Notes: generated by a model not told the origin, from the letters alone. DNA of 26,949 bases from Candidatus Cloacimonadota bacterium (GCA_027858325.1 JAQICU010000309.1:1-26949), one strand, 5' to 3'. Counted from the first letter of the stretch, positions 857 to 18,708 are shown. Numbers and translations: made by a program.

Positions 857-875
857 AACTATGTTGGGAGGAAAT

Positions 876-2423
876 TTGTATTTAATTAGAAACATATTAG
901 TACCAATTGCAAAAGAGATCGATCTTCAAAAAGCTATCTCCAATAAACTAAAGATTTCATCAAAACACATTAGCAATATCAAAATGATCCGCCGCTCAAT
1001 CGATGCACGCAAGAAAAATTACCTCAAATACAATTTCACTATTATTGCTGATATAGATTTCAATATTAAACTTAATAATGAAGTTCTGGAATATATTGAA
1101 CCGGAACCTTACATCAAAAGTTCAATCAAATTAACTGATCCTCATCCATTTATTATTGGAGCCGGTCCTGCTGGGCTTTTCGCTGCACTCTCACTCGTTG
1201 AAAAAGGATTTCAACCTTACATCTTTGACCGGGGAGAGACAATAGATCTTAGAGCAATAAAAGTTGAGAAATTCTGGCAAAAAGGAGTTCTGGATGAGAA
1301 CAGCAATGTTCAATTCGGTGAAGGTGGTGCAGGTACATTCTCCGATGGTAAACTTACTTCCAGAAGCAGAGATTTTTATACGAATCAAATTGTGGAATAT
1401 CTAATTAAATTTGGTGCTGATGAATCAATAAGATATGATGCCCTTCCCCATTTAGGAACGGATGGACTGAGAAAGATCATAATTAATTTGAGGAATTTCC
1501 TTACTGAAAATGGATGTAAATTCTTTTGGAACAGTAAGCTGGAAAATATCATAATTGAAAATAATAATATCACTGAAGTAGTTATTAACAATGAAAAATA
1601 CTCCCCCGAAATCCTGATTCTGGCTATTGGAAATTCAGCACGTGATACTTTCACAATGCTAAAAGATAAAACTGCCATGGAAAATAAATCTTTTGCTGTA
1701 GGTTTTCGAATTGAGCATTCACAAGAATTCATTAATAGTGCTTTCTATGGTGAGAAAACTAACTTTCCGCTTACAGGTCCGGCAAATTATCGCCTTACGG
1801 CTAAGTATAAAGATAAAGGAATTTATAGTTTCTGTATGTGTCCGGGTGGGTTTATTGTAGCCGGATCTTCAGAACAGAACAGCCTTGTACTTAATGGTAT
1901 GAGTTTTAAGGATAGAAGCAATAAATTAGCAAATAGTGCTATTGTGACAACAGTTAACAAAATTGATTTCGGTGATGATATTCTCGCCGGAATGAAGTTC
2001 CAACAACAGATTGAAAAAAAATGTTTCAACCATTCCAAACCTTATTTTGCTCCAACTCAAAATGCTGATGATTTCATGAAGAATTCAATTTCTTCAACTC
2101 AAAATCAAACAAGTTTTCTGCATGGAACATATCAAGAAGATCTAAATGAAGTTTTCCCGCAGAATATTACAGAATCATTAAAATCCGGGTTAAACAAATT
2201 CAATAACAAAATTCCTGGATTTATTGATAATGGTTTATTATTAGCACCCGAAACAAGAACATCATCTCCCGTACGTTTGCTCAGAAAACGTGATACTTTC
2301 CAGGCAAATGGATTCACTAATCTCTTTCCAATTGGTGAAGGTTCCGGTTATGCAGGGGGGATAATGAGTAGTGCTGCAGATGGATTTAAATGTGGTAATT
2401 TATTTCTTTTAAAACAAAAATAA
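876..2423 (+). CDS. Uncharacterised FAD-dependent oxidoreductase (COG2509-like)
   Basis: GAGPAG Rossmann motif, GEGGAGTFSDGKL, FCMCPGG, ETRTSSP and GEGSGYAGGIMS motifs typical of the family. Start moved from ATG 861 to TTG 876, which follows GGAGG at 867-871. Confidence 0.85.
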   Translation: MYLIRNILVPIAKEIDLQKAISNKLKISSKHISNIKMIRRSIDARKKNYLKYNFTIIADIDFNIKLNNEVLEYIEPEPYIKSSIKLTDPHPFIIGAGPAGLFAALSLVEKGFQPYIFDRGETIDLRAIKVEKFWQKGVLDENSNVQFGEGGAGTFSDGKLTSRSRDFYTNQIVEYLIKFGADESIRYDALPHLGTDGLRKIIINLRNFLTENGCKFFWNSKLENIIIENNNITEVVINNEKYSPEILILAIGNSARDTFTMLKDKTAMENKSFAVGFRIEHSQEFINSAFYGEKTNFPLTGPANYRLTAKYKDKGIYSFCMCPGGFIVAGSSEQNSLVLNGMSFKDRSNKLANSAIVTTVNKIDFGDDILAGMKFQQQIEKKCFNHSKPYFAPTQNADDFMKNSISSTQNQTSFLHGTYQEDLNEVFPQNITESLKSGLNKFNNKIPGFIDNGLLLAPETRTSSPVRLLRKRDTFQANGFTNLFPIGEGSGYAGGIMSSAADGFKCGNLFLLKQK

Positions 2424-2552: not shown

Positions 2553-4220
2553 ATGAAAAAGAAACTATTAGTTTTTGCCTTACTACTGCTTACTATATCT
2601 GTATTTGCAGTATGGAATGTTGGTGAGCCTATCACTGACGATTATTCATGGACAGACAGTAATGGAGAATATCATTCAATCCATGAACTAACTGAAGCAG
2701 GAAAAGCAATTGTAATTTTCTGGGGAGAAAGCTGGTGACCTGGGTGTACAGCGGCGGCGCCGTTTATGGAAGCTTGGTGGAACACACAAAATCCTGATGA
2801 AGTATATTACATTGCAACTTTTGATTGGTCTGTTAATGGTGTTTATATGCCATACGCAACAGAAGTTTATGGTTATTACTCTGATTTTGGCAATGGGTAT
2901 GTCCCTTTCTTTGGAGTATTTGGAGCATATAACAATTTCATGTATGGTGATAATGATTATCTGCCAGCTCAAAACATGGTTCCTAATGCAATTGAATCAT
3001 TCAATCATATAGGTTTAGCATTCCCTGTCGCCGATAGACAGATCAATTTCTGGGGATTCGATCATATTGATATTACCAACGAGTTTGGCACTCCAACCGG
3101 GAACCCAATTTCTTCTGTATCAATAACTGGCAACAGCAATCCTAATATTGCAAATGTAGAGCTTGTTGATAATGTTATCACTGTAATTGTTGGATCTGAA
3201 CTTGGTTCTACTGAGATCACTGTAACTGGAGATGATGGAACAGATGAAACTGTGGATGATGTATTTGTAATTACTGCTTTGAATCCTAATCTATTGAGTT
3301 ACGAATATCTTCTGGAAGATAGTCCGATTCAAGGATTATCTCCCAACAATCCAAATCCTTATTCAAACTCATATATCGATCTTGGCTGGACATCAATAGA
3401 TGTTACTGAAACGGATGAAATTGCAAATGTTTATTTCTCAGTAATGTGGGAAAGTGTTGATTATGTTAGTGAAGGAAGTTTCCGTGCTACATCTCCAAAC
3501 GGAACCGATGTTTTACTTTATAATCCTTCTGGCACAGATCCTGTACAATTAGAGATCAACGCTACAGAATTTAATGGTGAAGCAATGGATGGTGAATGGA
3601 TCATTTACATGTTAGATAGCTATGGTGACGGTGGACATCAGGTTACTGATGGTGTTGTAAACTTTATGTCCGATACAGATGAAATCGGTCAAGTCGCCGG
3701 TATTGTTTCAGATGCTGATGGCAATCCAATTCCAGAAGCAGTTATTTCTGTAAGTAATATTGCTACTATGGCAGATGATCTGGGTCAATTCTCATTTGAA
3801 ATTCTTAGTGGTGATTACACATTCACCTGTGAAGCTGAGGGTTACGAAGTAACTACTATAGACGATGAAGTGATTACAGATGAACTTACTTACCTTGATT
3901 TCCAATTGACAGCAATTACAGGGACTAATGATCTTCCAGTTCTTATAACAGAACTTCAAAGCAACTACCCAAATCCATTCAATCCAGTTACAAATATTTC
4001 TTATTCAGTTAAAGAAGCTGGAGATGTTACTCTTGAAGTTTACAATATAAAAGGACAACTCGTAACCACACTTGTTAACGAGGTAAAAGAAACAGGTAAT
4101 TATACAACAATCTGGAATGGTACAGACAATTCAAACAAATCTGTATCCAGTGGTGTTTACTTCTATAAAATGAAATCCGGCAACTACACTGCAACCAAGA
4201 AAATGATCTTAATGAAATAA
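2553..4220 (+). CDS. Secreted selenoprotein (555 aa, Sec62): signal peptide + UxxC thioredoxin-like domain + Ig-like + P-domain-like + carboxypeptidase-regulatory-like + FlgD-Ig/T9SS-like CTD
   Basis: ORFs 2553-2738 and 2766-4220 are in the same frame, separated only by TGA 2736-2738; readthrough gives FWGESW-U-PGC. SD AGGAG and signal peptide are on the upstream part only. SECIS-like hairpin follows. NYPNPFNP...KKMILMK terminus. Confidence 0.88.
2745..2768 (+). promoter_or_regulatory. Bacterial SECIS-like hairpin for TGA 2736-2738
   Basis: AGCGGC-[GGC]-GCCGTT upper stem, extendable with a bulged C2749; G-first loop starts 17 nt after the TGA. GC-rich GCG GCG GCG CCG codons in an AT-rich gene. 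Confidence 0.7.
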
Positions 4221-4229
4221 GAGAATTGA

Positions 4230-4255
4230 GCCTGACCACTTGCAAGTGGTCAGGC
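4230..4255 (+). terminator. Perfect 26-bp palindrome after the selenoprotein 1 stop; possible terminator or RNA-stabilising hairpin
   Basis: GCCTGACCACTTGCAAGTGGTCAGGC, 9 nt after the stop codon; the T-run (4264-4268) is not immediately adjacent. Confidence 0.55.
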
Positions 4256-4327
4256 AACTTATCTTTTTAATGAAATAGTGTAGCGATGTTACTATCGCTA
4301 CATAGTCACAACGTTCAACATTGCGAT

Positions 4328-4357
4328 AAAACGCCCTGAGAGATCGGGGTGTTTTTT
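4328..4357 (+). terminator. Intrinsic terminator
   Basis: AAAACGCCCTGA-GAGA-TCGGGGTGTTTT stem with GNRA loop, running into a T-tract (4352-4357). Confidence 0.8.
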
Positions 4358-4436
4358 GTTATTAATTATTTGACAATTCACATCAATTTGCTTTGTTGCC
4401 TCATGTGTTGCAACAATGATTTTTCATGGAGAAAAA

Positions 4437-5246
4437 ATGAATAAGTATTTAACTGAATTAATGGAAGTCGGACTTACAGAGAATGAGGCAAAAGTATATA
4501 GTTGCCTTTTGCGAAAACATACATTCACAGCAACTGAGATTTCACAATGTTGCACCGTAAACAGATCCCGGATCTATTCCGTTCTTGCAAGTTTAATAAA
4601 TAAAGGATTGTGTATAGAAAAACTGGGGAAAGTCAGAAGATTCCAAGCTGAAACTCCGGAAATTGCTTTTGAAAAACTCATTAACGAACAAAATGAAAAA
4701 TTAAAAACCCTTAACTCTCTACCCGAGCTTCTCTCTCCAATTTATAATTCTAATACCGACAACTCTTCTCCACTCAAATTCATCGAAGTTTATGGTACAC
4801 CTTCAAGTATTATAAAAAAACATCACACACTTGAACTTGAATCTAAAAAAGTTGTGCTCTCTTTCTGCAAATCTCCTTATGCAATGTCATATGACCTTAA
4901 TATTCATGAGGAACAAGAAGAAAGCATGAAAACAGGTGTCGTATACAAATCGATCTTTGAAATAGAGAAAGATGGTATTGAACTATTTGCCAGAAGAATG
5001 AAAAATTTTGAAGATCAGGGTGAAGAGATAAAAGTGGCATATCACCTTCCAATAAAATTGCATGTGTTTGATAACCACACTGTTATGTTCTCCATGATCA
5101 ACCAGGTAAATCCTGAACAAAACCTTACATATATGGTTATTGAGCATTCAGACCTAGCTGAAACACTCATTACTACATTCTACAAATATTGGGGTGAAGC
5201 ACTCACAGTTAGAGAGTTTCTAAAGAAGGAAAATATTAAACTTTAG
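4437..5246 (+). CDS. TrmB-family transcriptional regulator
   Basis: N-terminal GLTENEAKVYSCLL...RSRIYSVLASLINKGL winged HTH; C-terminal effector domain (LPIKLHVFD). Start placed at ATG 4437 after GGAGA. Confidence 0.85.
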   Translation: MNKYLTELMEVGLTENEAKVYSCLLRKHTFTATEISQCCTVNRSRIYSVLASLINKGLCIEKLGKVRRFQAETPEIAFEKLINEQNEKLKTLNSLPELLSPIYNSNTDNSSPLKFIEVYGTPSSIIKKHHTLELESKKVVLSFCKSPYAMSYDLNIHEEQEESMKTGVVYKSIFEIEKDGIELFARRMKNFEDQGEEIKVAYHLPIKLHVFDNHTVMFSMINQVNPEQNLTYMVIEHSDLAETLITTFYKYWGEALTVREFLKKENIKL

Positions 5247-5306
5247 GAATGCAAATTGCATTATTTGATAGTGTAAAATAATAATAATAATATATTCGGA
5301 GGATTA

Positions 5307-6911
5307 ATGAGGAAAATTTTGTGGATCACTTTTGCAATGCTGATACTATTTACTTCTCTTTTTGCACAATTACCTGACCCACAACATGTAGTTTCAGCAA
5401 AGATCGAAGAGAATCAAATAAAGGTAACATACATAATACCAAAAGGTTTTTATCAGACTTTATTAAAAGACATGTTATTCATCGATGTGGATGAAGTTCA
5501 TGGAATTACTTTCGAGCCAACTATCTATCCGGATGGTGAAAAATCCGAAGATGGTTATACTAAATATCATGGGAAGTTTTCATTAACTAAGCAGTTTACT
5601 ATTTCAGATAATTATAATGGGAATTCTTTTTTAAAAGTTTATGCTGGATATCAATTGTGTGATGAAGGCGGGACATGTTTTATGCCAGAAGAAGTTGAAT
5701 TCAGTTTAACTTTATCATCTGGCATAGAAGTAAAGGAAGAAGAAAGAACCGAAGACGCACATAAAGAAATTAAAAGCGTAGATGATATAGAAGGTCTGAT
5801 CGTTTTATTAGAAGACTTTGAGATCACTGGAAAAGAAGCTGGATATCAAAACAGTGAAGATTTCGTTACATTCCTGGAAAAAGCAAAAGAACCTGGTTCA
5901 TTAAGTACAAATAAATTTGCAAATATGAGTATCTGGCTTATTATCATCCTTATCTTACTCGGGGGAATTGCCTTAAATCTCACTCCCTGTGTCCTTCCTA
6001 TGATACCGATTACAATTGCTGTTTTAGGAGCCGGTACACAATCAGAATCAAAAGCTAAAGGATTTTTGATCGGTGGAATTTATGGTCTGGGAATGGCATT
6101 AGCTTATGGGTTGTTGGGTGTAATTGTGGTTCTCACCGGTTCTCAGTTCGGCACAATAAACTCATCTCCCTGGTTCAATATTATTATTGCCGCTATTTTT
6201 ATTGCATTAGCTTTAGCTATGTTCGATATCATTCCTATAGATTTCTCCAAATTTCAAAGTAATAAAGTCGGAAGTAAAAGCAGAAGTAAATTTATAACTG
6301 TATTTATTCTGGGAATCATTGCTGCTGTTTTGGCTGGAGCGTGTGTAGCTCCTGTTTTGATCTCAGTAATTTTGTATTCAACTTCACTATATACTGCTGG
6401 TAATCCTGCTGGATTGCTATTACCATTTTTATTAGGTGTTGGAATGGCAATTCCCTGGCCTTTTGCTGGAGCTGGTCTTTCCTTCCTTCCTAAACCTGGC
6501 AACTGGATGAAATGGGTAAAGATCATATTCGGGATTATTATCCTGATTATTGCGATATTCTATTTTTTCACAGGAATCAAAATTTTCAAGAGTAACAGAA
6601 CTGTAGAATATATTGCGGAATCGCATGAAACTTCTGAACTTCCATGGAAGCACTCTATAATTGAAGGTTTAAAATTAGCAAAAGAAGAGGATAAACCGGT
6701 TTTCATAGATTTTTGGGCAACCTGGTGTAAAAACTGTTTAGCTATGGATGCAACTACTTTCAAGGATGAAAAAGTGATAGAGGAATTCGAAAATTACATT
6801 TTGGTCAAATACAAAGCTGAAAACCTTAAAGTATCACCTACAAAAGAGATCTTAAATCACTTTGAAATAATCGGTTTGCCAACTTATATTACTTTGGTTC
6901 CGAAAAAATAG
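5307..6911 (+). CDS. dsbD: Protein-disulfide reductase DsbD
   Basis: Signal peptide, N-domain CDEGGTC, TM domain with LTPCVLP and GACVAP, C-terminal thioredoxin DFWATWCKNC. Confidence 0.92.
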   Translation: MRKILWITFAMLILFTSLFAQLPDPQHVVSAKIEENQIKVTYIIPKGFYQTLLKDMLFIDVDEVHGITFEPTIYPDGEKSEDGYTKYHGKFSLTKQFTISDNYNGNSFLKVYAGYQLCDEGGTCFMPEEVEFSLTLSSGIEVKEEERTEDAHKEIKSVDDIEGLIVLLEDFEITGKEAGYQNSEDFVTFLEKAKEPGSLSTNKFANMSIWLIIILILLGGIALNLTPCVLPMIPITIAVLGAGTQSESKAKGFLIGGIYGLGMALAYGLLGVIVVLTGSQFGTINSSPWFNIIIAAIFIALALAMFDIIPIDFSKFQSNKVGSKSRSKFITVFILGIIAAVLAGACVAPVLISVILYSTSLYTAGNPAGLLLPFLLGVGMAIPWPFAGAGLSFLPKPGNWMKWVKIIFGIIILIIAIFYFFTGIKIFKSNRTVEYIAESHETSELPWKHSIIEGLKLAKEEDKPVFIDFWATWCKNCLAMDATTFKDEKVIEEFENYILVKYKAENLKVSPTKEILNHFEIIGLPTYITLVPKK

Positions 6912-6916
6912 AAGGT

Positions 6917-8035
6917 ATGAAAATGAAGAAATTCCTGATCTTAATCAGCGTGGTTTTGATACTTTTTGCCTGTGATAGATTTGAACACAAATTTGAGCCG
7001 GAAATAAACAGTGAAAATTATATAATTGATTTTTTTAATACTTTTGCAGATTCAATTTCCACATTCCCGGAAAATATCCCTGGTATTATGTCTTTCTATA
7101 ATGATGACTATAATAATAATGGTGTCACAAAGTTGGATGTAGAAAATTTCTATATTGAACTTTCTCTTTTAACACCTGGTACTCTTGATCTTGAAGCAAT
7201 AATTATTGATACAACTGATAATTTCAATATTGAATGGAGATTGATAGCTACTGAACTCTCAACTTTTACATACTTGGATTCCATAATTACAGATGTTTTA
7301 TTGCCAACTGAAGATTCTTTCCAATTCTACGGAAACCAGGCAGACATGAGAAATGTTATTGTAGAACTTTTTACCGGACAATGGTGTCCAAACTGCCCAA
7401 ATGTTGAAGAAGCATTGCATAACCTCAGAATGCAATATGGAAGCAGATTCTCTTACGTTGAGTATCATATTGGCGATCAGCTTGCCGGTGATTTTTCAGA
7501 TATATTCAGTTATTATCCAAACAACGGAACACTGCCTTTCGGCATTGTAAACGGAAATGCACATATAGTTTATTCTGCTCAAAGTGTTGAGGAAGTTCAA
7601 GCAGAAATTGAAGCTGCAATTACACCACTTCTACAAGAACAACTTTTAGTATCTCTTTCTAACGTACAATCTAATCTTACAGATTCTCTGCTTACCGGAT
7701 CTGTCCAGATCGAGATTGATCCTTCCATTCCGACAGAAAACCTTACTTTGGTTGCTGTTTTGATGGAAGATTATAATGACGAGTATCTGAACAATCATGG
7801 AGATCCTCACTACAATATTGTGCTGAAAAGAACTACTTTCGATATTTCAGCTTTAAATTTAGATGATCCCATTGATTTTGAAATAACAGATCTGGATGTA
7901 CTTCCGCAATGGTATATGGACAATACAATCGGTTTACCCGAGGATCTTACTTTAGTGATCTGGGTTCAAACTTTAGAGATACCGTATAATCAAAATACAT
8001 GTGCTGTATATAATGTTATCGAAGTTTCTCTATAA
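6917..8035 (+). CDS. Lipoprotein with C-terminal Omp28-like thioredoxin-fold domain (CPNC)
   Basis: Lipobox LFA-C; VELFTGQWCPNCP motif resembling Omp28-family proteins. Confidence 0.75.
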   Translation: MKMKKFLILISVVLILFACDRFEHKFEPEINSENYIIDFFNTFADSISTFPENIPGIMSFYNDDYNNNGVTKLDVENFYIELSLLTPGTLDLEAIIIDTTDNFNIEWRLIATELSTFTYLDSIITDVLLPTEDSFQFYGNQADMRNVIVELFTGQWCPNCPNVEEALHNLRMQYGSRFSYVEYHIGDQLAGDFSDIFSYYPNNGTLPFGIVNGNAHIVYSAQSVEEVQAEIEAAITPLLQEQLLVSLSNVQSNLTDSLLTGSVQIEIDPSIPTENLTLVAVLMEDYNDEYLNNHGDPHYNIVLKRTTFDISALNLDDPIDFEITDLDVLPQWYMDNTIGLPEDLTLVIWVQTLEIPYNQNTCAVYNVIEVSL

Positions 8036-8056
8036 ATATTTAAGGAGTGATATAAC

Positions 8057-8596
8057 ATGAAAAATATTTTTATAACTATACTGATCATGATTCTGGCAAT
8101 TCAAATATTTGCTGCTGAAAAAGCCGGTGATTTTAAATTAGAAAACATTGAAGGTAAACAGGTTAAATTATCTGATTTTCAAAAAGAAGGTCTAGTAATA
8201 TTAGATTTCTGGGCGACCTGGTGTGTTCCCTGTAAAAACGGACTACCTAAAATAAATGAATTACATGAAAAATATGATAATGTTAATGTATTGACAATCA
8301 ACGTAGATAAACCTCGAAAAAAAGCCGCGGCCATTTCTACTGTCAAATCGAATCGTTTTACATTCCACACATTATTCGATTCCAAAAAAGTTGTTCAAAA
8401 ACAATATAACATTACAAATATTCCTCGCACATTGATCATAGATCAGGATGGAACAATAATTTATGATCATACAGGTTATCAGCGAGGTGATGAAAAACAT
8501 TATGAGGAAGTGATCGTTAAGTGGCTGGAAGAACAGGAGACCGGTGAACCCAAGGAAGATATATCCGAACCAGAAATCGAAGTACCGGAAGACTAA
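8057..8596 (+). CDS. TlpA-family thiol-disulfide reductase
   Basis: Signal peptide; DFKLENIEGKQVKLSDF, LDFWATWCVPC and cis-Pro NIPRT motifs. Confidence 0.9.
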   Translation: MKNIFITILIMILAIQIFAAEKAGDFKLENIEGKQVKLSDFQKEGLVILDFWATWCVPCKNGLPKINELHEKYDNVNVLTINVDKPRKKAAAISTVKSNRFTFHTLFDSKKVVQKQYNITNIPRTLIIDQDGTIIYDHTGYQRGDEKHYEEVIVKWLEEQETGEPKEDISEPEIEVPED

Positions 8597-8608
8597 TATG
8601 GTGAGAAA

Positions 8609-10087
8609 ATGAAAAAAACTTTCTTATTGATTATTTTGTTAAGCCTGACAGCAAATCTACTCTATTCAGAATTGAACCTCTCCGGAGTGGATGAAAGAGA
8701 ATTTATTAATGTTAACAGAATCATTGAAAATAGAAACTATTTTGTAAATAAACTACAGATTCAAGCACAATACAACCCGTTTCGCTTGGGACTTAAATTT
8801 GATTATTACAAACCTCATTTTGACAAATTTATGCTCATCAATGATGATATGAGTAATGAATTTATTGAGGATCAGTTGAATACAGAAAAAGATGAATACT
8901 ATTTCGATGAATACTACCTGCAATATGAATCTGATCATTGGTTTGCTCAGGCAGGAACTTTTGAAGCAGTTATCGGTTCCGGTATTGTTTTACACAATTT
9001 CTATGATGATGACTTTGAATCGGATTCCAGATTGATCGGTGGGTATGTAAATCCGGTTTATGATAGATGGCAAATGCAATTGTTTGGCGGAGTCATGGAA
9101 AGCATCGATCCTAATTTAGAAGATGAATACGATCAGGTAGGTGCTTTAGATGCAGCTGTAAGTTTTACAGAGAAACTTACTGTTGGTGGCAGCTATGTTC
9201 TACATAGAGAACTTATTAATGCAGACGAAGATGAATTCAATAACAGAACTGTTTATGCAGGGAAACTAAACTTCTCCTCTTCCCTATTTGATCTACACAC
9301 TGAATATGCAACCAGCAAAGATGATGAAGATGTAACAGGATCTGCAATCTATTCCAACATTGCATCTTATATAGGTAAATTCACACTTATTGGTGCTTAT
9401 AAAAATTACGAAAATTTTGATGTGAGAATATCCGATCTGCCGATGGTTAATCACTCAGGACAAATTTTGGAGCATAGTTGGGATGCTGGAAAAGATGAAG
9501 AAGGGCTAATGGGAGAGATACGTTTTCTTCCTAATTATGAAAATGAATTTATAGTAAATTATGCCGAAGGTTGGAACAGTAATTTCATGGTAAGGCTAGC
9601 TAATTTCTATTCCGAATTCAAACATGATTTTGAAGTCTGGTCATTCAAAGCTGAATTTGAATCATTGGAACAACTTAACAAAGAAGATACAAATAGATGG
9701 TATAAAGAGATCACTCCTACTCTTACTTTTGATTTTCTAGTGAAGGAAAGTCCTGTTCTAATTAAAGCTGAATATCAATATAAAGAAGAAGATAAAATAA
9801 TCGGTAATTATTCGCATTTTGAACCTCGTTTACAAACAGATATAGCAATTGGAAACTATTCTTTATCTGTCGCAGTTGAAAACCAGATCGGTGACTCTGA
9901 CTCACCTGAAGATGGAGATGATGGTGAATACTGGATCGGTGGAGAACTTGCAACAACAATATTCAATAATACTGATTTACGATTATTTTATGGTAAAGAA
10001 AAAGGCGGTATCGTTTGTCGAAATGGTGTTTGTAAAAATCAGGCAGAATTTGATGGGATCCGTCTGAGTGTAACAACAACGTTTTAA
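8609..10087 (+). CDS. Predicted outer-membrane beta-barrel (DUF6029-like) with C-terminal CxxxxC
   Basis: Signal peptide, alternating amphipathic strands, terminal Phe, GGIVCRNGVC near the C-terminus. The family name is from recall of similar TlpA/Omp28-linked proteins and is not verified. Confidence 0.65.
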   Translation: MKKTFLLIILLSLTANLLYSELNLSGVDEREFINVNRIIENRNYFVNKLQIQAQYNPFRLGLKFDYYKPHFDKFMLINDDMSNEFIEDQLNTEKDEYYFDEYYLQYESDHWFAQAGTFEAVIGSGIVLHNFYDDDFESDSRLIGGYVNPVYDRWQMQLFGGVMESIDPNLEDEYDQVGALDAAVSFTEKLTVGGSYVLHRELINADEDEFNNRTVYAGKLNFSSSLFDLHTEYATSKDDEDVTGSAIYSNIASYIGKFTLIGAYKNYENFDVRISDLPMVNHSGQILEHSWDAGKDEEGLMGEIRFLPNYENEFIVNYAEGWNSNFMVRLANFYSEFKHDFEVWSFKAEFESLEQLNKEDTNRWYKEITPTLTFDFLVKESPVLIKAEYQYKEEDKIIGNYSHFEPRLQTDIAIGNYSLSVAVENQIGDSDSPEDGDDGEYWIGGELATTIFNNTDLRLFYGKEKGGIVCRNGVCKNQAEFDGIRLSVTTTF

Positions 10088-10105
10088 TAATTAAGGAGAT
10101 ATAAA

Positions 10106-10831
10106 TTGAAAAAGTTAATTTTATTATTATTTTTAGTGATGAGCATGGGGTTAGTTCATGCTGAATTGGAAGTTGATATTCCATTTGATATGGATATCAT
10201 CGGTGACGATTTTTCAGTAGTTGGTCCCTATATTTATGAATCAGATTGGATCACGATCTCAAATGTTGGTTCAACAAATGAAACATATACTATAACATGT
10301 TCTTTCAGTGAAGTGCCGGCAGATTGGACAGCTAGCGTTTGTAATGAACTAGGATTATGTTACATTCCCAATATGCCTTCTAATATCGATATTAACGCTG
10401 GTGAATTTGTGCTTATTCATCTTTTACTGGGAGTAAATAGTACTGGTGGCTGTGGTGTGAACATTACACTGGATGACGGAGACCTTACAGAACCGATCAG
10501 TCTTGATTTCAGATTTGATACAGCTGACAATGTAAGCGCTGATGAGGAACTTATTCCAGCTCTCATACTTGGACAGAACTATCCAAATCCGTTTAATCCG
10601 AGTACAACAATTTCTTATAACCTATCTACTGAGGAATTGGCAAACGCAAGTATTTCCATTTATAATACAAAAGGACAATTAATTAGAACATTTAACGATC
10701 TTAATACTAACGGAAGTATTATATGGGATGGAAAAGATGATAACAATAATATCGTTAACTCAGGTGTTTATTTCTATAAATTAAATAGCATAAAATCTTC
10801 GAAAATAAGAAAAATGATCTTAATTAAATAA
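10106..10831 (+). CDS. Small secreted protein with FlgD-Ig/T9SS-like CTD and a 4-Cys N-terminal domain
   Basis: TTG start after AAGGAG; signal peptide; WTASVCNELGLCY motif; QNYPNPFNP...RKMILIK terminus. Confidence 0.8.
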   Translation: MKKLILLLFLVMSMGLVHAELEVDIPFDMDIIGDDFSVVGPYIYESDWITISNVGSTNETYTITCSFSEVPADWTASVCNELGLCYIPNMPSNIDINAGEFVLIHLLLGVNSTGGCGVNITLDDGDLTEPISLDFRFDTADNVSADEELIPALILGQNYPNPFNPSTTISYNLSTEELANASISIYNTKGQLIRTFNDLNTNGSIIWDGKDDNNNIVNSGVYFYKLNSIKSSKIRKMILIK

Positions 10832-10842
10832 AGGAGGGAAAA

Positions 10843-12807
10843 ATGAAAAAGAGCATTTTATTACTGGTTTTATTGGTTTTGACAATGTCATTGTTTGGCG
10901 TCTATAATGTCGGTGATATAGTAGATAACTATACTTGGACAGACAATACGGGAGCGGCACATGATATTTATGAGCTAACTGCTCAAGGTGTAGCAATCGT
11001 CTTCTTCTGGGGAGGTTATTCCTGACCTAGCTGTGTTGCGGCGGCGCCGCAATTTCAAGCTTTATGGGAACAACAACAACAGTATCCGGATGGTAATGTA
11101 TATATGATTACACAAACTGACTGGGGTGCAGGACATACTCATTTCACAGGGATAGGAGCATCAGGTGCATTTGGGAATGGATATATCCCCTTGTTTGCAG
11201 TTATAGGTGCAGACAATGAATGTTATTATAATAATAATTACTTTTCCAGTGTAACATCAGCTCTGAATCTAGCAATTGAATCATTTGGACTTAATGCAAA
11301 TATGACGGCAAATGTAACAAGTGGACCTGCGAATCTAGCAGTTCAATTTCAAAGCCTTTGCACACCAGCAAATGGTATCGAAAGCTGGGAATGGGATCTG
11401 GATGGTGATGGCGAGATCGACAGTACAGAAGAAGATCCTTATTTTCTTTATACTGAACAAGGTACTTATGATGTCACCTTAACAATAACTATGGACGGAG
11501 AGACATCTACACTCACAAATGAAGATTATATCACGGTTACCGACGGCTCGAATATCTCGGGATCTCTTTCCGGTAACTGGATTGCCGGTAATACATACAC
11601 TATAACTGGTGAGGTTGATATACCTGAAGGTAATGAACTAATAATTACTGAGGGAACTGAGATCAATATAGAAAATGACACTCAGTTGTTAGTAAATGGG
11701 CTTCTGGCAGCAGATGCATCATCTTCACGAGGAGAACCTATTATTTTCAAATCAGAATCTTCCTGGAGCGGTATAAGATTCTTTAATACTCAAGAAGATA
11801 ATATTCTTGCTAACTGTGAGATCTCCAATGCTAGTGTTTCCGCTATTTTGGTAGAAGGTGATTCAAAAGTTGATGTTATCGGATGTAAAATATTTGATAA
11901 TACGAGTACTTCACTTGGAGCAGCATTTGAAGTTATTGGATCTGATAATGTTCTGATCTCTCAAAACATAATTGCTAATAATTACAGTACAAATTCTGTA
12001 GGTGGTATCAAATGCATCAATTCAGCAATAGAGATCACTAATAATCTGATAGTTAACAATTCAGGATCATACAGTGCTATTATTCTTCAAAACGGTTCTG
12101 ATGTAGAGTTTACGAACAATACAATTGCCAACAATGAAGCAAATGGTGTAAACGCTTATACATTCTTTATCTTAAGCTCAGATCCTGTCATCAAGAATTG
12201 CATTATCAACGATAGCAATCCGATTTTCTTTGCTTCCGGTACTATAGATGTAACATATACCTGTATAAGTGGTGGATATGAGGGCACAGGCAACATCGAT
12301 GAAGATCCTCTCTTTGCTGCACCAACAGCCGGAGACGGAACAGGATATGATGGACTTGCTGCTGATTGGAGCTTACAAGCTGGTTCACTTTGTATAAATG
12401 CCGGTGATCCTGATGCAATGTACAACGATACAGATGGAACAAGAAACGATATGGGTGCTTATGGAGGACCAACACCGTACGAATTGGAACCAACAGATTC
12501 AGATGATAACACAGTTAATGTAGCTGCTATCAACTCAATCTCTGTTTACCCAAATCCATTCAACCCGACAGCTAACATTGCACTTTCCATTAATGAGAAT
12601 GATATTCAGCAGCCTGTATCTGTAGAGATCTTCAACATAAAAGGGCAATTAGTTAAAACAATTGTGAATAATGAGATTGTCCAAAATACAAACTTTGTGT
12701 GGAACGGAAAAGACAACAGTGGTAACTCAACTTCCAGCGGAATGTATTTTGTGAAGCTGAAAACAGCTACTTCTGAAGTTTCTAAAAAGATGCTGTTGAT
12801 TAAATAG
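10843..12807 (+). CDS. Secreted selenoprotein (654 aa, Sec61): signal peptide + UxxC thioredoxin-like domain + PKD + parallel beta-helix + FlgD-Ig/T9SS-like CTD
   Basis: ORFs 10843-11025 and 11104-12807 are in frame, separated only by TGA 11023-11025; readthrough gives FWGGYS-U-PSC. The N-terminus is paralogous to 2553-2738 and a SECIS-like hairpin follows. Confidence 0.88.
11035..11053 (+). promoter_or_regulatory. Bacterial SECIS-like hairpin for TGA 11023-11025
   Basis: TTGCGGC-[GGC]-GCCGCAA perfect 7-bp stem; loop starts 17 nt after the TGA; compensatory base change relative to the 2745-2768 hairpin. Confidence 0.75.
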
Positions 12808-12828
12808 TTAATTGAATATTTCTTATTG

Positions 12829-12859
12829 AAAAGGGAACTGCTTTTACAGTTCCCTTTTT
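12829..12859 (+). terminator. Intrinsic terminator (possibly bidirectional)
   Basis: AAAAGGGAACTG-CTTTTA-CAGTTCCCTTTTT, 21 nt after the stop. Confidence 0.85.
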
Positions 12860-12943
12860 CTTACTCAGATTAAAACTATTTACGTATATGGAATGAGATA
12901 TGCATTAATAAGATGAGTTAAAATTTTTAGAAAGGAGTATTAG

Positions 12944-15900
12944 ATGTTAATAATAAAAAAACTGATTCTTGTTTTGATCTTCACAATGATGCTAACCGGA
13001 CTTTTTGGTGCTTATCTCATAGATCAACCACAGATTCTCACTCAACCTGATGGGAAAATACTGCATTGTTTTGCCTCTGGAGATGAATTCCACAACTGGC
13101 TGCATGATGAAAACGGATATACAATAATTCAAGATCCTGACACGGGATATTTTGTGTATGCTGACCTGATAGGTGAGAAACTGGTTTCTACCAGCTATAC
13201 TGCAGGTCAAATAGATCCGGCAACTACAAGTTTAAAACCAGGGTTGAATGCAAAACCTGAAGGATTTGAACAAAGAGTTGAAGAGTTCAATCAAATACTG
13301 GCAGATAGAAGAAGCAGAGTTTCCACGATCGGTGATCTGAACAATCTTGTTGTATTTATCCGTTTTTCCGATCAAACAGAATTCACTGAAACTTTAACAC
13401 AATATAATAACTTGTTCAATGCTGTTGATGAAAGCTCGATGTATCAATATTTTGACGAAGTATCGAATGAACAACTCGATATAACTTCCCATTTCTATCC
13501 CGAACCAAACGGCAATCTTATCATTTCGTATCAAAGTCCAAATCCTCGTAATTATTACGAAGTTTATAATGCTGTGACTAATCCGAACGGTTACCAAACT
13601 GATCAACAACGTACTCAAAGGGAACATGCACTTTTACAAGCTGCAATCCAATTTGTAGAAGCTCAAATACCTCCAACTCTGGATCTGGATAATGATGATG
13701 ATGGCTTAGTGGACAATGTTTGTTTCATCATCAAGGGTAGTACTGGAGCATGGGCAGACCTGCTTTGGCCCCACATGTGGGTTTTATATTCACTTGATGT
13801 TTACATTCATGGTGTGCAGGTGTGGACTTATAATTTCCAATTGTCTCAAAGTTTAAACAGCAGCGGAGTAGGAGTTTTATGTCATGAGATGTTCCACTCT
13901 CTGGGCGCACCCGATCTTTATCATTATACAAACAATGGCATCTCTCCCACCGGTAGTTGGGATTTGATGTGCGCAAATACAAATCCACCCCAGCACATGA
14001 CCACCTGGATGAAATATAAATATGGGCTCTGGTTCGATGAAGTTCCTGAAATAAACACTACTGGAACTTATACATTGGAACCGGTCGTTGATTCCCCTTA
14101 TAGTTGTTACAAAATTCCTTCTCCAAATTCTAGTACAGAATTCTTTATGGTGGAATACCGTCGCAGAACCGGGTTATTTGAACCTAGCATCCCTGGAGAC
14201 GGCTTGATCATATATAGGATAGACCCGACCCTGAATGGGAATGCTTCCGGTCCTCCGGATGAAGTTTATCTCTTCCGTCCCGATGGAACCATGACCAACA
14301 ACGGTAACGTTAATCAAGCACATTTTTCGGCTGATGTTGGCAGAACTGAATTTAATGACAACACAAATCCTGCCGGATTCCTGCAATATGGTGCACCAGG
14401 CGGGATCTTTATTTCCGAAATTGGTTTTGTAGGTGATACAATCGAATTTACCTTAAATGCAGGACTCGTCCCAATGTTTGAAACCAATGTGCAAACTGGA
14501 CCTGCCTACCTGGGAGTACAATTCACTAACACTTCATTTCCTGTTACAGGTATTGATAGCTGGGAATGGGATTTTGATGGAGATGGCATTTTTGACAGCA
14601 CAGAAGAGAATCCGTTCCATCTCTATACTGAACCTGGTGTGTATGATGTAACTCTTAAGATCGAAGTTGATGGAGAATTCGCTGAGATCACTGTTGAAGA
14701 TTATATCACAGTTACAGATGGTTCTTCAGTTAGTGGAAATCTTTCAGGAGTATGGGTACCTGATTTCAGCCCATATATGATTTCCGAAGATATTGTTATT
14801 GCAGAAGGTGATGAACTAATAATTACTGAGGGAGTTGAGATTATTTTTGCCGGAAATGTACAATTTACTGTGAATGGACTTCTGGCAGCAGATGCTTCTT
14901 CGACAAGAGGAGAACCTATTATTTTCAAATCAGAATCTTCCTGGAACGGTATAAGATTCTTTGTTACTCAAGAAGATAATATTATTGCTAACTGCGAGAT
15001 TTCCGATGCAAGTGTTTCGGCTATCAAGATTGAAGGTGATTCAAAAGTTGATGTTATCGGCTGTAAGATATTTGATAATAATAGTACTTCACTTGCTGCA
15101 GCATTTGAGATTATAGGATCTGATAATGTTCTGATCTCACAAAACATTATTGCCAATAACATAAGCACAAGCAACGCTGGAAGTATTGGCTGCAATGCCT
15201 CTTCTCCTGGAATCACAAATAATATTATTGTGAATAACACTGGACAATGGGGTGCATTTTACTTATCGAATGATTCTAATCCAATCATGACTAATAATAC
15301 AATTGCGAATAATGAATCAACTAAAGAAATTGCCGGTACTCAAACTCCATACCTGTTCTTCCTTTTGAATTCAATTCCAATTATTACTAATTCGATCATC
15401 ATTGATAATGGTGAAATCCATTTTCCGCTGAGTACACCTGAAATTACCTATAGTTGCGTAACAGGTGGATTTACAGGTGAAGGAAATATTGATGAAGATC
15501 CGCTTTTTGTTGCACCAACAGCCGGAGACGGAACAGGATATGGCGGGCTTGCTGCTGATTGGAGCTTACAAGCTGGTTCACTTTGTATAAATGCTGGTGA
15601 TCCTGCTACTATGTACAACAATATAGATGGAACAAGAAACGATATGGGCGCTTATGGTGGTCCAACTCCTTTCGAAATGGAACCAACAGATTCTGATGAT
15701 AACACAGTTAATGTAGCTGCTATCAATTCAATCTCTGTATATCCTAATCCGTTCAATCCAACTGCCAATATAGCTCTTTCAATTAACGATAATGATATCC
15801 AGCAGCCTGTATCAGTTAAGATCTTCAACATTAAAGGTCAGCTTGTAAAAACAATTGTGAATAATGAAGTCGTCCAAAATACAAACTTTGTCTGGAATGG

Positions 15901-16000
15901 AAAAGACAATAAGGGCAATTCTACCGCAAGCGGAATGTATTTTGTGAAGCTAAAAACAGCTACTTCTGAAGTTTCTAAAAAGATGCTGTTGATTAAATAA
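12944..16000 (+). CDS. Secreted M6-family (immune inhibitor A-like) zinc metalloprotease + PKD + beta-helix + FlgD-Ig/T9SS-like CTD
   Basis: Signal peptide, propeptide-like QPDG...GDEFHNW region, GVLCHEMFHSLGAPDLY (HExxH), WDLM, EFFMVEYR motifs; C-terminal half paralogous to 11311-12807. Confidence 0.88.
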   Translation: MLIIKKLILVLIFTMMLTGLFGAYLIDQPQILTQPDGKILHCFASGDEFHNWLHDENGYTIIQDPDTGYFVYADLIGEKLVSTSYTAGQIDPATTSLKPGLNAKPEGFEQRVEEFNQILADRRSRVSTIGDLNNLVVFIRFSDQTEFTETLTQYNNLFNAVDESSMYQYFDEVSNEQLDITSHFYPEPNGNLIISYQSPNPRNYYEVYNAVTNPNGYQTDQQRTQREHALLQAAIQFVEAQIPPTLDLDNDDDGLVDNVCFIIKGSTGAWADLLWPHMWVLYSLDVYIHGVQVWTYNFQLSQSLNSSGVGVLCHEMFHSLGAPDLYHYTNNGISPTGSWDLMCANTNPPQHMTTWMKYKYGLWFDEVPEINTTGTYTLEPVVDSPYSCYKIPSPNSSTEFFMVEYRRRTGLFEPSIPGDGLIIYRIDPTLNGNASGPPDEVYLFRPDGTMTNNGNVNQAHFSADVGRTEFNDNTNPAGFLQYGAPGGIFISEIGFVGDTIEFTLNAGLVPMFETNVQTGPAYLGVQFTNTSFPVTGIDSWEWDFDGDGIFDSTEENPFHLYTEPGVYDVTLKIEVDGEFAEITVEDYITVTDGSSVSGNLSGVWVPDFSPYMISEDIVIAEGDELIITEGVEIIFAGNVQFTVNGLLAADASSTRGEPIIFKSESSWNGIRFFVTQEDNIIANCEISDASVSAIKIEGDSKVDVIGCKIFDNNSTSLAAAFEIIGSDNVLISQNIIANNISTSNAGSIGCNASSPGITNNIIVNNTGQWGAFYLSNDSNPIMTNNTIANNESTKEIAGTQTPYLFFLLNSIPIITNSIIIDNGEIHFPLSTPEITYSCVTGGFTGEGNIDEDPLFVAPTAGDGTGYGGLAADWSLQAGSLCINAGDPATMYNNIDGTRNDMGAYGGPTPFEMEPTDSDDNTVNVAAINSISVYPNPFNPTANIALSINDNDIQQPVSVKIFNIKGQLVKTIVNNEVVQNTNFVWNGKDNKGNSTASGMYFVKLKTATSEVSKKMLLIK

Positions 16001-16090: not shown

Positions 16091-16366
16091 ATGATTAATA
16101 TTAAATTTTATAGTTTACTCAGAATGTTCTTAAAGCAAAATGAAGTTGAGATAAATGCTGACAATATTTCCATTTTAAATCTCCTGAAAAATGTTGCCGA
16201 GATAACCAATAAAGATCTTTTAGCTGAACTTATTAAAGCTGGAAAACTTATCTCAGGAACTATCATTCTTTTGAATGGCAGAAATATCTACCATTTAGAA
16301 AAAATGGATACGATTGTAAGTAATGGTGATAAGATCGACATATTCCCGCCCGGAGGTGGTGGATAA
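16091..16366 (+). CDS. MoaD/ThiS-family ubiquitin-like sulfur carrier
   Basis: 91 aa; ILLNGRNI and GDKIDIFPPGGGG with C-terminal di-Gly. Confidence 0.88.
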   Translation: MINIKFYSLLRMFLKQNEVEINADNISILNLLKNVAEITNKDLLAELIKAGKLISGTIILLNGRNIYHLEKMDTIVSNGDKIDIFPPGGGG

Positions 16367-17046
16367 TGGATCTATTTTCAAGAAATATCAAATTTTGGGG
16401 AGAGGAAAAACAAGCTCTCTTAATGGAATCGTCCATTCTTATTGCAGGAATGGGTGGTTTGGGCTGCACAGTTGCTGAAAACCTGGTTCGAGCAGGTATT
16501 GGTAAACTTATTCTACTCGATCATGACATAATAACTGAAACAAACCTGAACCGGCAGATATTATTCGATCAAGAGGATATTGAAAAATCCAAAGTAATTA
16601 CTGCGCAGAAAAAGCTATCACGAATAAATAATGAAATTGAGATCATTGCCATAGATAGGAAAATTGAAAGTGTAAATAATATCACTGAAATTAAGAGTAA
16701 TTTTTGCGGAATTGCTGATTGCCTGGATAATTATGAAAGCAGATTCATATTGAGTGATGCTTTAAGAGATGATCAATTCCTGGTTCATGGTGGAGTCAAA
16801 AATGATTTTGGTCAAATTACAACTATCAAGAATGGAATAACTCAAAATCTAAAACAAATATTTGGAGATCAGAAAGATGAGATTGAACCTGCTGTAATTC
16901 CTCAAACAGTGATCACGATTGGTTCATTAATGGCTCAGGAAATTATTAATAATATCTTTGGGAAACCACAATTGATAAACAAATTATTGATTGTTGAACT
17001 GTCGGATTTTTCTATGTTTAAGGTGGAAATGAAGAAAGGAAAATGA
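16366..17046 (+). CDS. ThiF/MoeB/HesA-family adenylyltransferase (E1-like)
   Basis: IAGMGGLG, LDHDIITETNLNRQIL and DCLDN motifs; start overlaps the MoaD stop (TAATG). Confidence 0.88.
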   Translation: MDLFSRNIKFWGEEKQALLMESSILIAGMGGLGCTVAENLVRAGIGKLILLDHDIITETNLNRQILFDQEDIEKSKVITAQKKLSRINNEIEIIAIDRKIESVNNITEIKSNFCGIADCLDNYESRFILSDALRDDQFLVHGGVKNDFGQITTIKNGITQNLKQIFGDQKDEIEPAVIPQTVITIGSLMAQEIINNIFGKPQLINKLLIVELSDFSMFKVEMKKGK

Positions 17047-17088
17047 AACCTTAAGATAATTAATTAAATAAACGAAAAAGGAAATTAA

Positions 17089-17919
17089 ATGAAAAATAAG
17101 ATTTCATCATTTGAAGGAATACGATCATTCCTGAAAGAAGGAGCCTGATCTGCAGCATTGTTGAGAGTTCTCAACTAAAGCTTTGATAAGAGGAAGCAAC
17201 TGGAAGAGAAAGGTTCTGCGCTACTGGCAGGTGGAATTATGCAGCATGGTTATCAATGCGGCATGATCTGGGGAGCAGTTCTCGCAGCAGGAGCCCAAGC
17301 TTATGAAAGATTTGGGTCTGGAGCAGAAGCTGAAACCAGAGCAATAATGGCAGCACAAAAACTTGTAGATGCCTTTCAAACTTGTACTGGTGAGATAGAC
17401 TGTTTCGAAATAACAGATATCGACAAATCATCTTCAACTATGAAGATGATCTATGTTTTTCTGATAAAAGGTAAAACCCTTGGCTGCATGCGCCTGGCTG
17501 GAAAATATGCTCCAATAGCATTTAATGAGATAAATGCTGCGTTTGCAGAAGAACAAATCGAAATACCATCAGCTCCAGTAAGCTGTGCCGCGGAATTGGC
17601 AAGAAAAATGGGTGCTTCGGAAAAACATGTTGTTATGGCAGCTGGACTTGCCGGCGGCATCGGTTTATGTGGTGGTGCTTGTGGAGCATTGGGAGCTGCA
17701 ATTTGGTTCATGACTATGAATAAAGGTTTAGACAGCAAAATGGAATTTAAAGATCCCAAGGCTCTTGAATTAATTGAAACAGCATTTTTACCAAACTCCG
17801 ATTATGAATTCGAGTGTTCCGAAATAGTTGGTCGCAAGTTTAAAAATATAAAAGATCATGCCAGGTTTATTCGTGAGGGAGGATGTGCAAAGCTCATCGA
17901 AACATTGGCAGGGAAATAA
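17089..17919 (+). pseudogene. Tandem C_GCAxxG_C_C-family redox (seleno)protein, 276 codons, with Sec TGA at codon 20 and premature TAA at codon 30 (pseudogene status uncertain)
   Basis: ATG 17089 after AAGGA is in frame with 17239-17919. U-SAALLR aligns with the second internal repeat C-AAELAR. Both repeats have LAGGI..G..CG..GA. TAA at 17176-17178. Confidence 0.7.
17154..17182 (+). promoter_or_regulatory. Bacterial SECIS-like hairpin for TGA 17146-17148
   Basis: GTTGAG-[AGTT]-CTCAAC upper stem; loop starts 17 nt after the TGA; lower stem AGC..TT/AA..GCT with T17176 bulged. Confidence 0.65.
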
Positions 17920-17998
17920 TTGGCAGGTTTTTCGATGTTTAAAGTGGATATGGAAAAGTAAAAAATCAAACATAATCAAAAGATGAGAGGAGAAGACA

Positions 17999-18655
17999 AT
18001 GAGTAAAAACAAACTGGATGAAACCGAAATTATGACATCAGATGAAGAGATCGCGAATGCGGTTTTACATGGTATTGGTCTGGGTTTATCAATTGCTGTA
18101 CTTGTTGCTTTAGTCGTATTAGGCCGTATTCATGGGGATATTTTGTATATAGTGAGCTTTAGTGTTTACGGTTCTACTTTAATATTACTATATCTCTCAT
18201 CTACTTTATATCACAGTTTTCCTCATGGGAAAGTAAAAGATATTTTCGAAATATTTGATCATTCCGCTATTTATCTGCTTATTGCCGGGACATATACACC
18301 CATTTCCTTGATTGCAATAAAAGGTAGTTTTGGTTGGACAATGTTTGGCATAATCTGGGGTGTAGCAATATGCGGGATTCTATTTAAGGTATTTTGGATT
18401 AAAAAATTTGTGTTATTATCAACTGTCTTTTATATAATTATGGGGTGTTTTATAATAATAGCAATTAAGCCAATATTTGCTAACATGAATACAACAAGCA
18501 TTGTTTTTCTTTTTATTGGAGGAGCTTCATATATACTTGGAACAATATTTTATCTCTGGAGGAAAATCAAATATCATCATGCAATTTGGCATCTGTTTGT
18601 TCTGGGTGGAAGTACCTGCCATTTCTTTACCATGTTTTTTCTGATCTCAAAATAG
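17999..18655 (+). CDS. Hemolysin III / PAQR-family membrane protein
   Basis: EEIANAVLHG, DHSAIYLLIAGTYTP and HAIWHLFVLGG motifs; about 7 TM helices. Confidence 0.92.
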   Translation: MSKNKLDETEIMTSDEEIANAVLHGIGLGLSIAVLVALVVLGRIHGDILYIVSFSVYGSTLILLYLSSTLYHSFPHGKVKDIFEIFDHSAIYLLIAGTYTPISLIAIKGSFGWTMFGIIWGVAICGILFKVFWIKKFVLLSTVFYIIMGCFIIIAIKPIFANMNTTSIVFLFIGGASYILGTIFYLWRKIKYHHAIWHLFVLGGSTCHFFTMFFLISK

Positions 18656-18708
18656 GGTGCTGGAGATGGGATTAAGTGTAGATGGGGATAAATGATGTTT
18701 GATTCTAT

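Follow-up and report, generated by a model that had tools for sequence, protein, structure and literature searches.

A stretch of 26,949 nucleotides from a Candidatus Cloacimonadota bacterium (GCA_027858325.1 JAQICU010000309.1:1-26949, hereafter the window) carries a run of genes that we read as a reductive thiol/selenol module of the cell envelope, which has its anchor in the outer membrane and serves sorted proteins with thioredoxin-like heads, a reading to which we assign a probability of roughly 0.6. The module comprises genes for the transporter DsbD, an Omp28-like lipoprotein with a CxxC motif, a TlpA-type oxidoreductase, an outer-membrane barrel of the DUF6029 family and a small sorted protein with a cysteine (Cys) pair, and it is accompanied by two genes for putative selenoproteins, in which a UxxC head containing selenocysteine (Sec) is joined to a C-terminal domain (CTD) of the kind sorted by a secretion system of type IX (T9SS). 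An initial annotation made from the sequence alone had proposed that reductant flows from DsbD via TlpA and the lipoprotein to the barrel and on to surface selenoproteins; the Sec genes, the conserved unit and the gene fusions described below speak for this pathway, while the passage of electrons through the barrel found no such backing, the predicted complex scoring 0.12. The cassette thus suggests an undescribed route by which reducing power may reach the outer membrane or the cell surface, and our literature search found no paper that describes it, nor any on T9SS-sorted or Omp28-type selenoproteins.

According to the mechanism that we propose, DsbD would pass electrons from cytoplasmic thioredoxin into the periplasm and there reduce the TlpA-type oxidoreductase, probably along with the Omp28-like CxxC lipoprotein. 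TlpA would act where the DUF6029 barrel opens into the periplasm; it is fused to the barrel in some genera and carries a TonB_C docking domain in another clade. Reducing equivalents would then reach the Cys/Sec active sites of T9SS-type CTD-sorted proteins. The clients here would be the two UxxC selenoproteins, and in other families Omp28-like heads with either Sec or Cys. The route from DsbD to TlpA follows from established family chemistry; from gene order, gene fusions and conserved Cys/Sec pairs we infer every electron-transfer step past DsbD, the face of the outer membrane at which it takes place, and the substrate.

A cassette conserved across the phylum

A pattern scan of 185,579 species genomes retrieved 144 related loci; the locus counts given here refer to the best 80 of these 144, and for each feature only loci with enough flanking sequence were counted. 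With the exception of two contigs labelled Armatimonadota and two labelled "uncultured bacterium", all 80 belong to the Cloacimonadota, and the homologues bear the database names Candidatus Cloacimonadota and, for some, Candidatus Tenebribacter. The two Armatimonadota contigs (L082 and L084) hold a full cassette of the Cloacimonadota type, with 52-53% barrel identity, and are probably mis-binned or mislabelled. The neighbourhood, whose conservation the initial annotation had left to be checked, turned out to be strongly preserved: TlpA lies immediately 5' of the barrel in 72 of 72 loci, 62 of 64 have the Omp28-like lipoprotein on the 5' side and 55 of 57 have DsbD there, and the small sorted Cys-pair protein follows on the 3' side in 63 of 71. 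DUF6029 itself is single-copy in 171 of the 232 Cloacimonadota genomes (E ≤ 1e-10). The small sorted protein keeps its Cys-pair loop, and in other families the same domain bears an Omp28-like CxxC head. On this comparison of sequences, DsbD, lipoprotein, TlpA, barrel and sorted Cys-pair protein form a phylum-wide conserved unit, and the like recurrence of TGA position, hairpin and gene order in many species is more than chance.

The same TlpA-barrel-lipoprotein module was found in two Marinimicrobia contigs (L149 and L150), where a redoxin gene stands directly 5' of a DUF6029 barrel and a lipoprotein with an Omp28-like CxxC segment lies 3' of it; the gene order differs from that of the Cloacimonadota and there is no adjacent DsbD. 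Since the module recurs there without DsbD next to it, the core consists of TlpA, barrel and CxxC lipoprotein, which DsbD joins in the Cloacimonadota. One of the two contigs also has a small sorted Cys-pair protein 5' of the redoxin, for which BLAST against the protein of the window gave similarity in the sorting domain only, so that their equivalence is merely suggestive. An Atlas search with the small sorted protein returned scores below 0.9 and no usable lead.

These data also bear on whether the genes are coupled at all. DsbD plus TlpA might form an all-purpose set for repairing oxidative stress in the envelope, one that simply lies beside surface-protein genes and is inherited with them as a block, and the shared descent of many loci, together with the solitary Sel1-type genes of several relatives, would be in keeping with this. 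We nevertheless regard it as very unlikely, since the cassette order persists at barrel identities of only 28-36% while the flanking genes change, gene fusions occur, the module reappears in a second phylum in a different order, and the same position is taken by Sec and Cys heads from two unrelated thioredoxin subtypes.

Two selenoprotein genes split by gene callers

In selenoprotein 1, the TGA at 2736-2738 bridges a 61-aa leader open reading frame (ORF) and a 484-aa ORF, giving W-U-PGC, and the TGA at 11023-11025 likewise bridges a pair of ORFs in selenoprotein 2 to give S-U-PSC. The genome has the machinery for such recoding, which the initial annotation had proposed to look for as selA, selB, selC and selD: selA, selB and selD all score above curated cut-offs, and ARAGORN detects a tRNA-Sec. 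The selD gene (G000:C290:1477-2403) holds one in-frame TGA, and SelD is therefore probably a selenoprotein itself. Searches with the 150-residue head gave 21 strong matches in 41 related genomes, all 21 with exactly one in-frame TGA, and 63 matches in 54 of the 232 Cloacimonadota genomes of the phylum, 61 of them again with exactly one. In the remaining two, which belong to the loci L060 (G191:C145) and L061 (G160:C160), the motif is CPFS in one and SPSS in the other; the CPFS variant starts an open frame longer than 2,200 aa, and the SPSS variant is presumably redox-inactive. In the predicted-protein library, the family appears as 60-residue fragments that end at the TGA and long fragments that begin just past it, which is the usual signature of unannotated selenoproteins. 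The library also contains full-length relatives with CxxC aligned to UxxC, as had been anticipated in the form of Cys-for-Sec orthologues, with Cys in the place of Sec in P0209 (CGGC), P0221 (CGPC), P0224, P0227, P0246 and P0251.

A candidate selenocysteine insertion sequence (SECIS) was found at both sites, as a hairpin whose loop lies 17 nt 3' of the UGA. Of 26 homologues, 24 retain its 11-nt GC core, which codes for Ala-Ala-Ala-Pro using GCG, a codon that accounts for only 4.3% of the Ala codons here. The core 11-mer occurs three times in the 2.29 Mb genome, and two of these copies are the ones 3' of the two TGAs; the third (G000:C361 near 11912, minus strand) has no TGA at the usual upstream distance. 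The base pairs that flank the core (15-29 and 16-28) covary, with a score above all 500 shuffles and every slid control. An Rfam scan of the window matched no SECIS family, its sole match being a tRNA at 79-151, and none of the NCBIfam selenoprotein models matches the two heads, which NCBIfam links to ResA and StoA only, and weakly (E ~1e-3). An alternative genetic code was ruled out, as a single TGA is recoded per gene and thiF (16366-17046) terminates at TGA. With Sec machinery, a conserved single TGA, a GC hairpin and CxxC homologues all in place, the sequence data indicate that both UxxC genes are genuine selenoproteins, as first annotated, and they define a selenoprotein family whose genes are split in two by gene callers.

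The AlphaFold2 model of the selenoprotein 1 head (mean predicted local distance difference test, pLDDT, 90.1) places U62 just before a helix at 63-76, and P118, the cis-Pro, is invariant across homologues. Foldseek returned ResA, CcmG, DipZ-C and the pneumococcal surface thioredoxins Etrx1 and Etrx2 as the nearest solved folds, at template modelling (TM) scores of 0.55-0.68. The heads fall below the Pfam AhpC-TSA/Redoxin gathering cut-off of 26, with 19.2 and 19.4 bits, and are thus remote members of the TlpA/ResA-type thioredoxins; the modelling indicates that they adopt a TlpA/ResA-like thioredoxin fold in which helix 1 has Sec at its N-terminus.

Redox heads on sorted proteins

The initial annotation had noted a CTD shared by four proteins of the window, and this is a T9SS type A sorting domain: all four match TIGR04183 / PF18962, with TIGR04183 scores of 38-42 bits against a cut-off of 23. 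Such proteins with redox heads do accompany the cassette elsewhere. Among the 47 loci with at least 3.5 kb 3' of the barrel, 35 have a same-strand gene with an N-terminal U/CxxC head on that side (20 with Sec, 15 with Cys only), and 46 of 50 complete head ORFs end in the sorting-domain motif. Three architectures recur: a TlpA-like Sec head as in the window (640-670 aa), an Omp28-like U/C-x-Y-C-P head with a PKD/beta-helix tail (715-750 aa, weakly matching NF045500), and an Omp28-like CxxC head fused to a small sorted protein (440-470 aa). Genes of the selenoprotein 2 ortholog type lie 0.8-3.3 kb 3' of the barrel in many species. Omp28-like heads number only two or three per complete genome, and in three of five such genomes one of them is directly 3' of the barrel. 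L044, from a lineage without the TlpA-like Sec head, encodes an Omp28-like selenoprotein (16914-19091, plus strand; T-G-U-G-Y-C) with the same PKD/beta-helix/sorting tail about 5.5 kb 3' of its barrel, which the gene caller had split into pieces of 34 and 657 aa.

The tails of selenoprotein 2 and of the neighbouring M6 protease are 73% identical over 504 aa, and therefore one display scaffold bears either a protease or a redox head. A role of selenoprotein 2 as a surface enzyme would fit, because its display tail is that of the protease; it could perhaps be a disulfide reductase that aids extracellular protein breakdown by a protein-fermenting anaerobe.

Several observations weigh against our interpretation, the first set of them concerning export. 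The T9SS core genes that were to be confirmed came out unevenly: an SprA-type translocon is present above cut-off (495 bits summed), whereas the PorU-like protein (342.7 bits, cut-off 420) and the PorV-like pieces (89 and 81 bits, cut-off 250) stay below theirs, and GldK/L/M/N were unmatched by four TIGRFAM models in this 83% complete genome, in a comparison whose control genomes lack a T9SS. Given these missing and low-scoring components, a canonical T9SS is no more than a plausible exporter, and surface export is assumed here. The second set concerns linkage. Several genomes (e.g., G137, G142 and G024) have their head genes apart from the cassette, Sel1-type genes often stand alone in relatives, the heads of family f12 lie hundreds of kb from the cassette, and the large family f4 keeps the cassette while UxxC heads of the window type were found in none of its 98 genomes, for which reason we consider the selenoproteins lineage-specific clients and not part of the core. 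Moreover, the loci are related by descent, so that independent support is smaller than the synteny counts suggest; the three metatranscriptomes available from the same study of a saline spring cover almost none of the window; and for barrel, TlpA and lipoprotein together the complex prediction reached 0.12, the mark being 0.32, a result that we count neither way.

How far reducing power may travel

DsbD proteins have an established chemistry, in which electrons of cytoplasmic thioredoxin are carried into the periplasm. The DsbD of the window matches the N-terminal domain PF11412 (26.1 bits, cut-off 25), the membrane domain PF02683 (139 bits) and the C-terminal thioredoxin domain PF13899 (34 bits), and reaches 223.5 bits against NF001419, below the cut-off of 330. 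A cytochrome c maturation role for DsbD and TlpA was rejected for most relatives, as the assembly family was found in three of 26 genomes and not in this one. DsbB and VKOR were found in none of the same number (0/26), so that oxidative folding is an unlikely role and DsbA/DsbB an unlikely source of a structural disulfide.

The CxxC of TlpA is invariant. TlpA::DUF6029 fusions exist as two database proteins (P0094 and P0099), open frames of about 650 aa stand at the barrel locus in seven genomes from four genera, and in one other clade TlpA carries a TonB_C domain. These fused reading frames tie TlpA physically to the barrel, and the proximity that they indicate concerns the periplasmic side only. 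In the lipoprotein, the lipobox Cys, the CxxC and the cis-Pro (Cys19, C157/C160 and Pro207) are invariant in 38 homologues. Its match to NF033782 is weak (38.5 bits, cut-off 150) and covers residues 141-193 only, it also matches NF045500 weakly, and its structural likeness to PF11551 clusters in the Atlas is a lead only. The Omp28-like profile matches the HBP35 structure 5y1a over the CxxC region (E = 2.5e-4).

The barrel exceeds the PF19494 gathering cut-off of 27 with a match restricted to profile positions 60-286, and C470, R471, N472, G473 and C475 (CRNGxC) are invariant in 54 barrel sequences. Its AlphaFold2 model (pLDDT 92.7) has approximately 22-24 strands and no plug domain, with ushers, BtuB, MtrB and LptD as the nearest folds in the PDB (TM ~0.5). 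If the C-terminal strand is taken to end in the periplasm, the order of strands in this model would put the hairpin with the Cys pair in the last extracellular loop.

The strongest claim that could be built on these features is that the barrel, with TlpA docked or fused to it, and the CxxC lipoprotein together relay thiol/selenol-disulfide exchange through the outer membrane and so re-reduce surface Sec/Cys enzymes, and this we consider doubtful. A tentative alternative, which is a sub-case of the reductive module and slightly more likely than the relay, is that all charging takes place in the periplasm: DsbD, TlpA and lipoprotein would protect outer-membrane proteins and T9SS cargo from oxidation at their Cys and Sec residues by keeping these reduced during periplasmic transit, with the barrel as a client through its own Cys pair or as a scaffold, and no electrons would cross the outer membrane. 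This would agree with DsbD to TlpA being the standard periplasmic route, with the pre-export folding of T9SS cargo in the periplasm, with the missing DsbB/VKOR pathway and with a complex prediction that lends an assembly of barrel and lipoprotein no support. However, it leaves unexplained the TlpA-barrel fusion and the TonB_C domain of TlpA, the invariant Cys pair in the putative last extracellular loop, and the recurrence of a CxxC lipoprotein of the Omp28 kind in nearly every locus.

It is also conceivable, if improbable, that the barrel is a channel for an oxidised sulfur or selenium compound, or for a polysaccharide as proposed for Wzi-like barrels, with TlpA reducing the compound or gating the channel via the Cys pair and the redox-head genes as mere neighbours. 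Cross-strand Cys pairs can serve as redox switches, and a large barrel without its own plug domain would suit such a function. The sole paper that mentions DUF6029 relates the family to Wzi-like polysaccharide barrels (PMC9603273). Against a channel, the cassette has no recurrent genes for transporters, polysaccharide export or sulfur or selenium metabolism, and its recurrent neighbours all carry Cys or Sec pairs.

Comparison with known systems

To our knowledge, DsbD-fed reducing pathways end in the periplasm. The closest of them, from DsbD to CcmG/ResA/TlpA and the pneumococcal CcdA-Etrx-MsrAB2 pathway, resemble the cassette in that the gene for a DsbD-type transporter adjoins genes for TlpA/ResA-like WCxxC thioredoxins, and in that ResA, CcmG, DipZ-C and the surface-exposed Etrx lipoproteins are among the nearest folds of the Sec head. 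They differ in that cytochrome c maturation genes are absent from most of the relatives studied here, and in that the cassette adds three kinds of component foreign to the described pathways: a barrel, to which TlpA is sometimes fused, an Omp28-like CxxC lipoprotein, and clients sorted by the T9SS. The profiles NF045500 ("Omp28-related selenoprotein") and NF033782 match the cassette lipoprotein and the Omp28-like heads of other species over the CxxC/UxxC region, although the scores are far below curated cut-offs (38.5 vs. 150 and 76.8 vs. 200).

On the side of the clients, PMC4674972, citing PMC2907840, presents HBP35 of Porphyromonas gingivalis (PDB 5y1a) as a T9SS cargo with thioredoxin activity. 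Like the selenoproteins of the window, it has an N-terminal thioredoxin-like CxxC domain on a protein sorted by a T9SS CTD, whereas it is Cys-based and has no known DsbD-TlpA-barrel neighbourhood or electron supply, and the heads of the window are of the TlpA/ResA subtype with Sec. The cassette is a candidate source of the electrons that thioredoxin-like T9SS cargo at the surface, HBP35 for one, could be supplied with.

The MtrCAB conduit (PDB 6r2q) offers a comparison of working principle only: a large outer-membrane barrel is combined with two redox proteins, one in the periplasm and one a lipoprotein at the surface, and MtrB is among the structural neighbours of the DUF6029 barrel. Unlike MtrCAB, the cassette has no haems and its chemistry would be thiol/selenol-disulfide exchange; entry of TlpA or the lipoprotein into the barrel is, moreover, unsupported by the complex prediction. 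Were the relay true, it would be a protein-thiol counterpart of MtrCAB by which cytoplasmic reducing power could act on extracellular disulfides, and reducing power at the surface would in general amount to a new kind of envelope redox biology with relevance to anoxic protein degradation. More broadly, an outer-membrane barrel and a lipoprotein are conserved reductase partners in at least two phyla of the Fibrobacterota-Chlorobiota-Bacteroidota (FCB) group, with secreted thioredoxin-like proteins, many of them hidden selenoproteins, as conserved neighbours of the module, and the uncharacterised DUF6029 family gains a testable functional context.

Gene layout of the window

The window is contig C147 of a single Cloacimonadota genome, whose related sequencing runs originate from a saline spring. 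Its gene layout (Table 1) agrees with the initial annotation: nine successive plus-strand ORFs fill 2553-16000, the motifs UPGC, CKNC, CPNC, CVPC, UPSC and CRNGVC were each located in the translated genes, and the ORF coordinates bear out the tight spacing claimed from dsbD to selenoprotein 2 (5-21 nt), with gaps of 5, 21, 12, 18 and 11 nt. The terminator placed at 12829-12859 was missed by a simple terminator scan and recovered at 12828-12859 by folding the stretch directly, and the simple scan gave further terminator-like sites 3' of selenoprotein 1 and 3' of the M6 protease. The gene called TrmB is present as well; it is not the tRNA methyltransferase of that name, which was ruled out, and encodes a regulator of the TrmB family (PF01978) that adjoins dsbD in this genus only, according to the synteny comparison.

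Table 1 Features of the cassette and its flanks, in coordinates of the window (HTH, helix-turn-helix).
Feature	Coordinates	Strand	Evidence and details
Selenoprotein 1 (predicted)	2553..4220	+	Signal peptide, TlpA/ResA-like head U62-PGC, Ig-like and CarboxypepD_reg domains, T9SS type A sorting domain (Pfam, NCBIfam)
Sec codon TGA 2736-2738 and SECIS-like hairpin ~2749-2765	2736..2765	+	GC core, GGC loop
TrmB-family HTH transcription regulator	4416..5246	+	PF01978, 56.6 bits
DsbD, inner-membrane thiol:disulfide electron transporter	5307..6911	+	PF02683 139 bits, PF11412, PF13899; CKNC
Omp28-like lipoprotein with thioredoxin-like domain	6917..8035	+	Lipobox Cys19, C157-x-x-C160 (CPNC), Pro207
TlpA/ResA-type periplasmic thiol:disulfide oxidoreductase, CVPC	8057..8596	+	PF00578 85.5 bits
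DUF6029 outer-membrane beta-barrel	8609..10087	+	PF19494 68.1 bits; CRNGVC hairpin encoded 10016-10033
Small T9SS-sorted protein, conserved Cys-pair loop	10106..10831	+	Sorting-domain match
Selenoprotein 2 (predicted)	10843..12807	+	Signal peptide, TlpA-like head U61-PSC, PKD, right-handed beta-helix, T9SS sorting domain
Sec codon TGA 11023-11025 and SECIS-like hairpin ~11036-11052	11023..11052	+	
Intrinsic terminator-like hairpin, 3' of selenoprotein 2	12828..12859	+	13 bp and T run, -18.3 kcal/mol, z = -4.9
M6-family metalloprotease with PKD, beta-helix and sorting-domain tail	12944..16000	+	TIGR03296 146.9 bits

Two neighbours of this run, an FAD-dependent oxidoreductase-like gene 5' of selenoprotein 1 (861-2423, plus strand) and a ThiS-ThiF pair directly 3' of the M6 protease (16091-17046, plus strand), do not recur with the cassette in the other loci read. 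Further downstream, a gene of the C_GCAxxG_C_C family (PF09719; 17089-17919, plus strand) has a TGA at codon 20 within GA-U-SAA and an in-frame TAA at codon 30, and is possibly a third selenoprotein gene, either disrupted or affected by a sequencing error.

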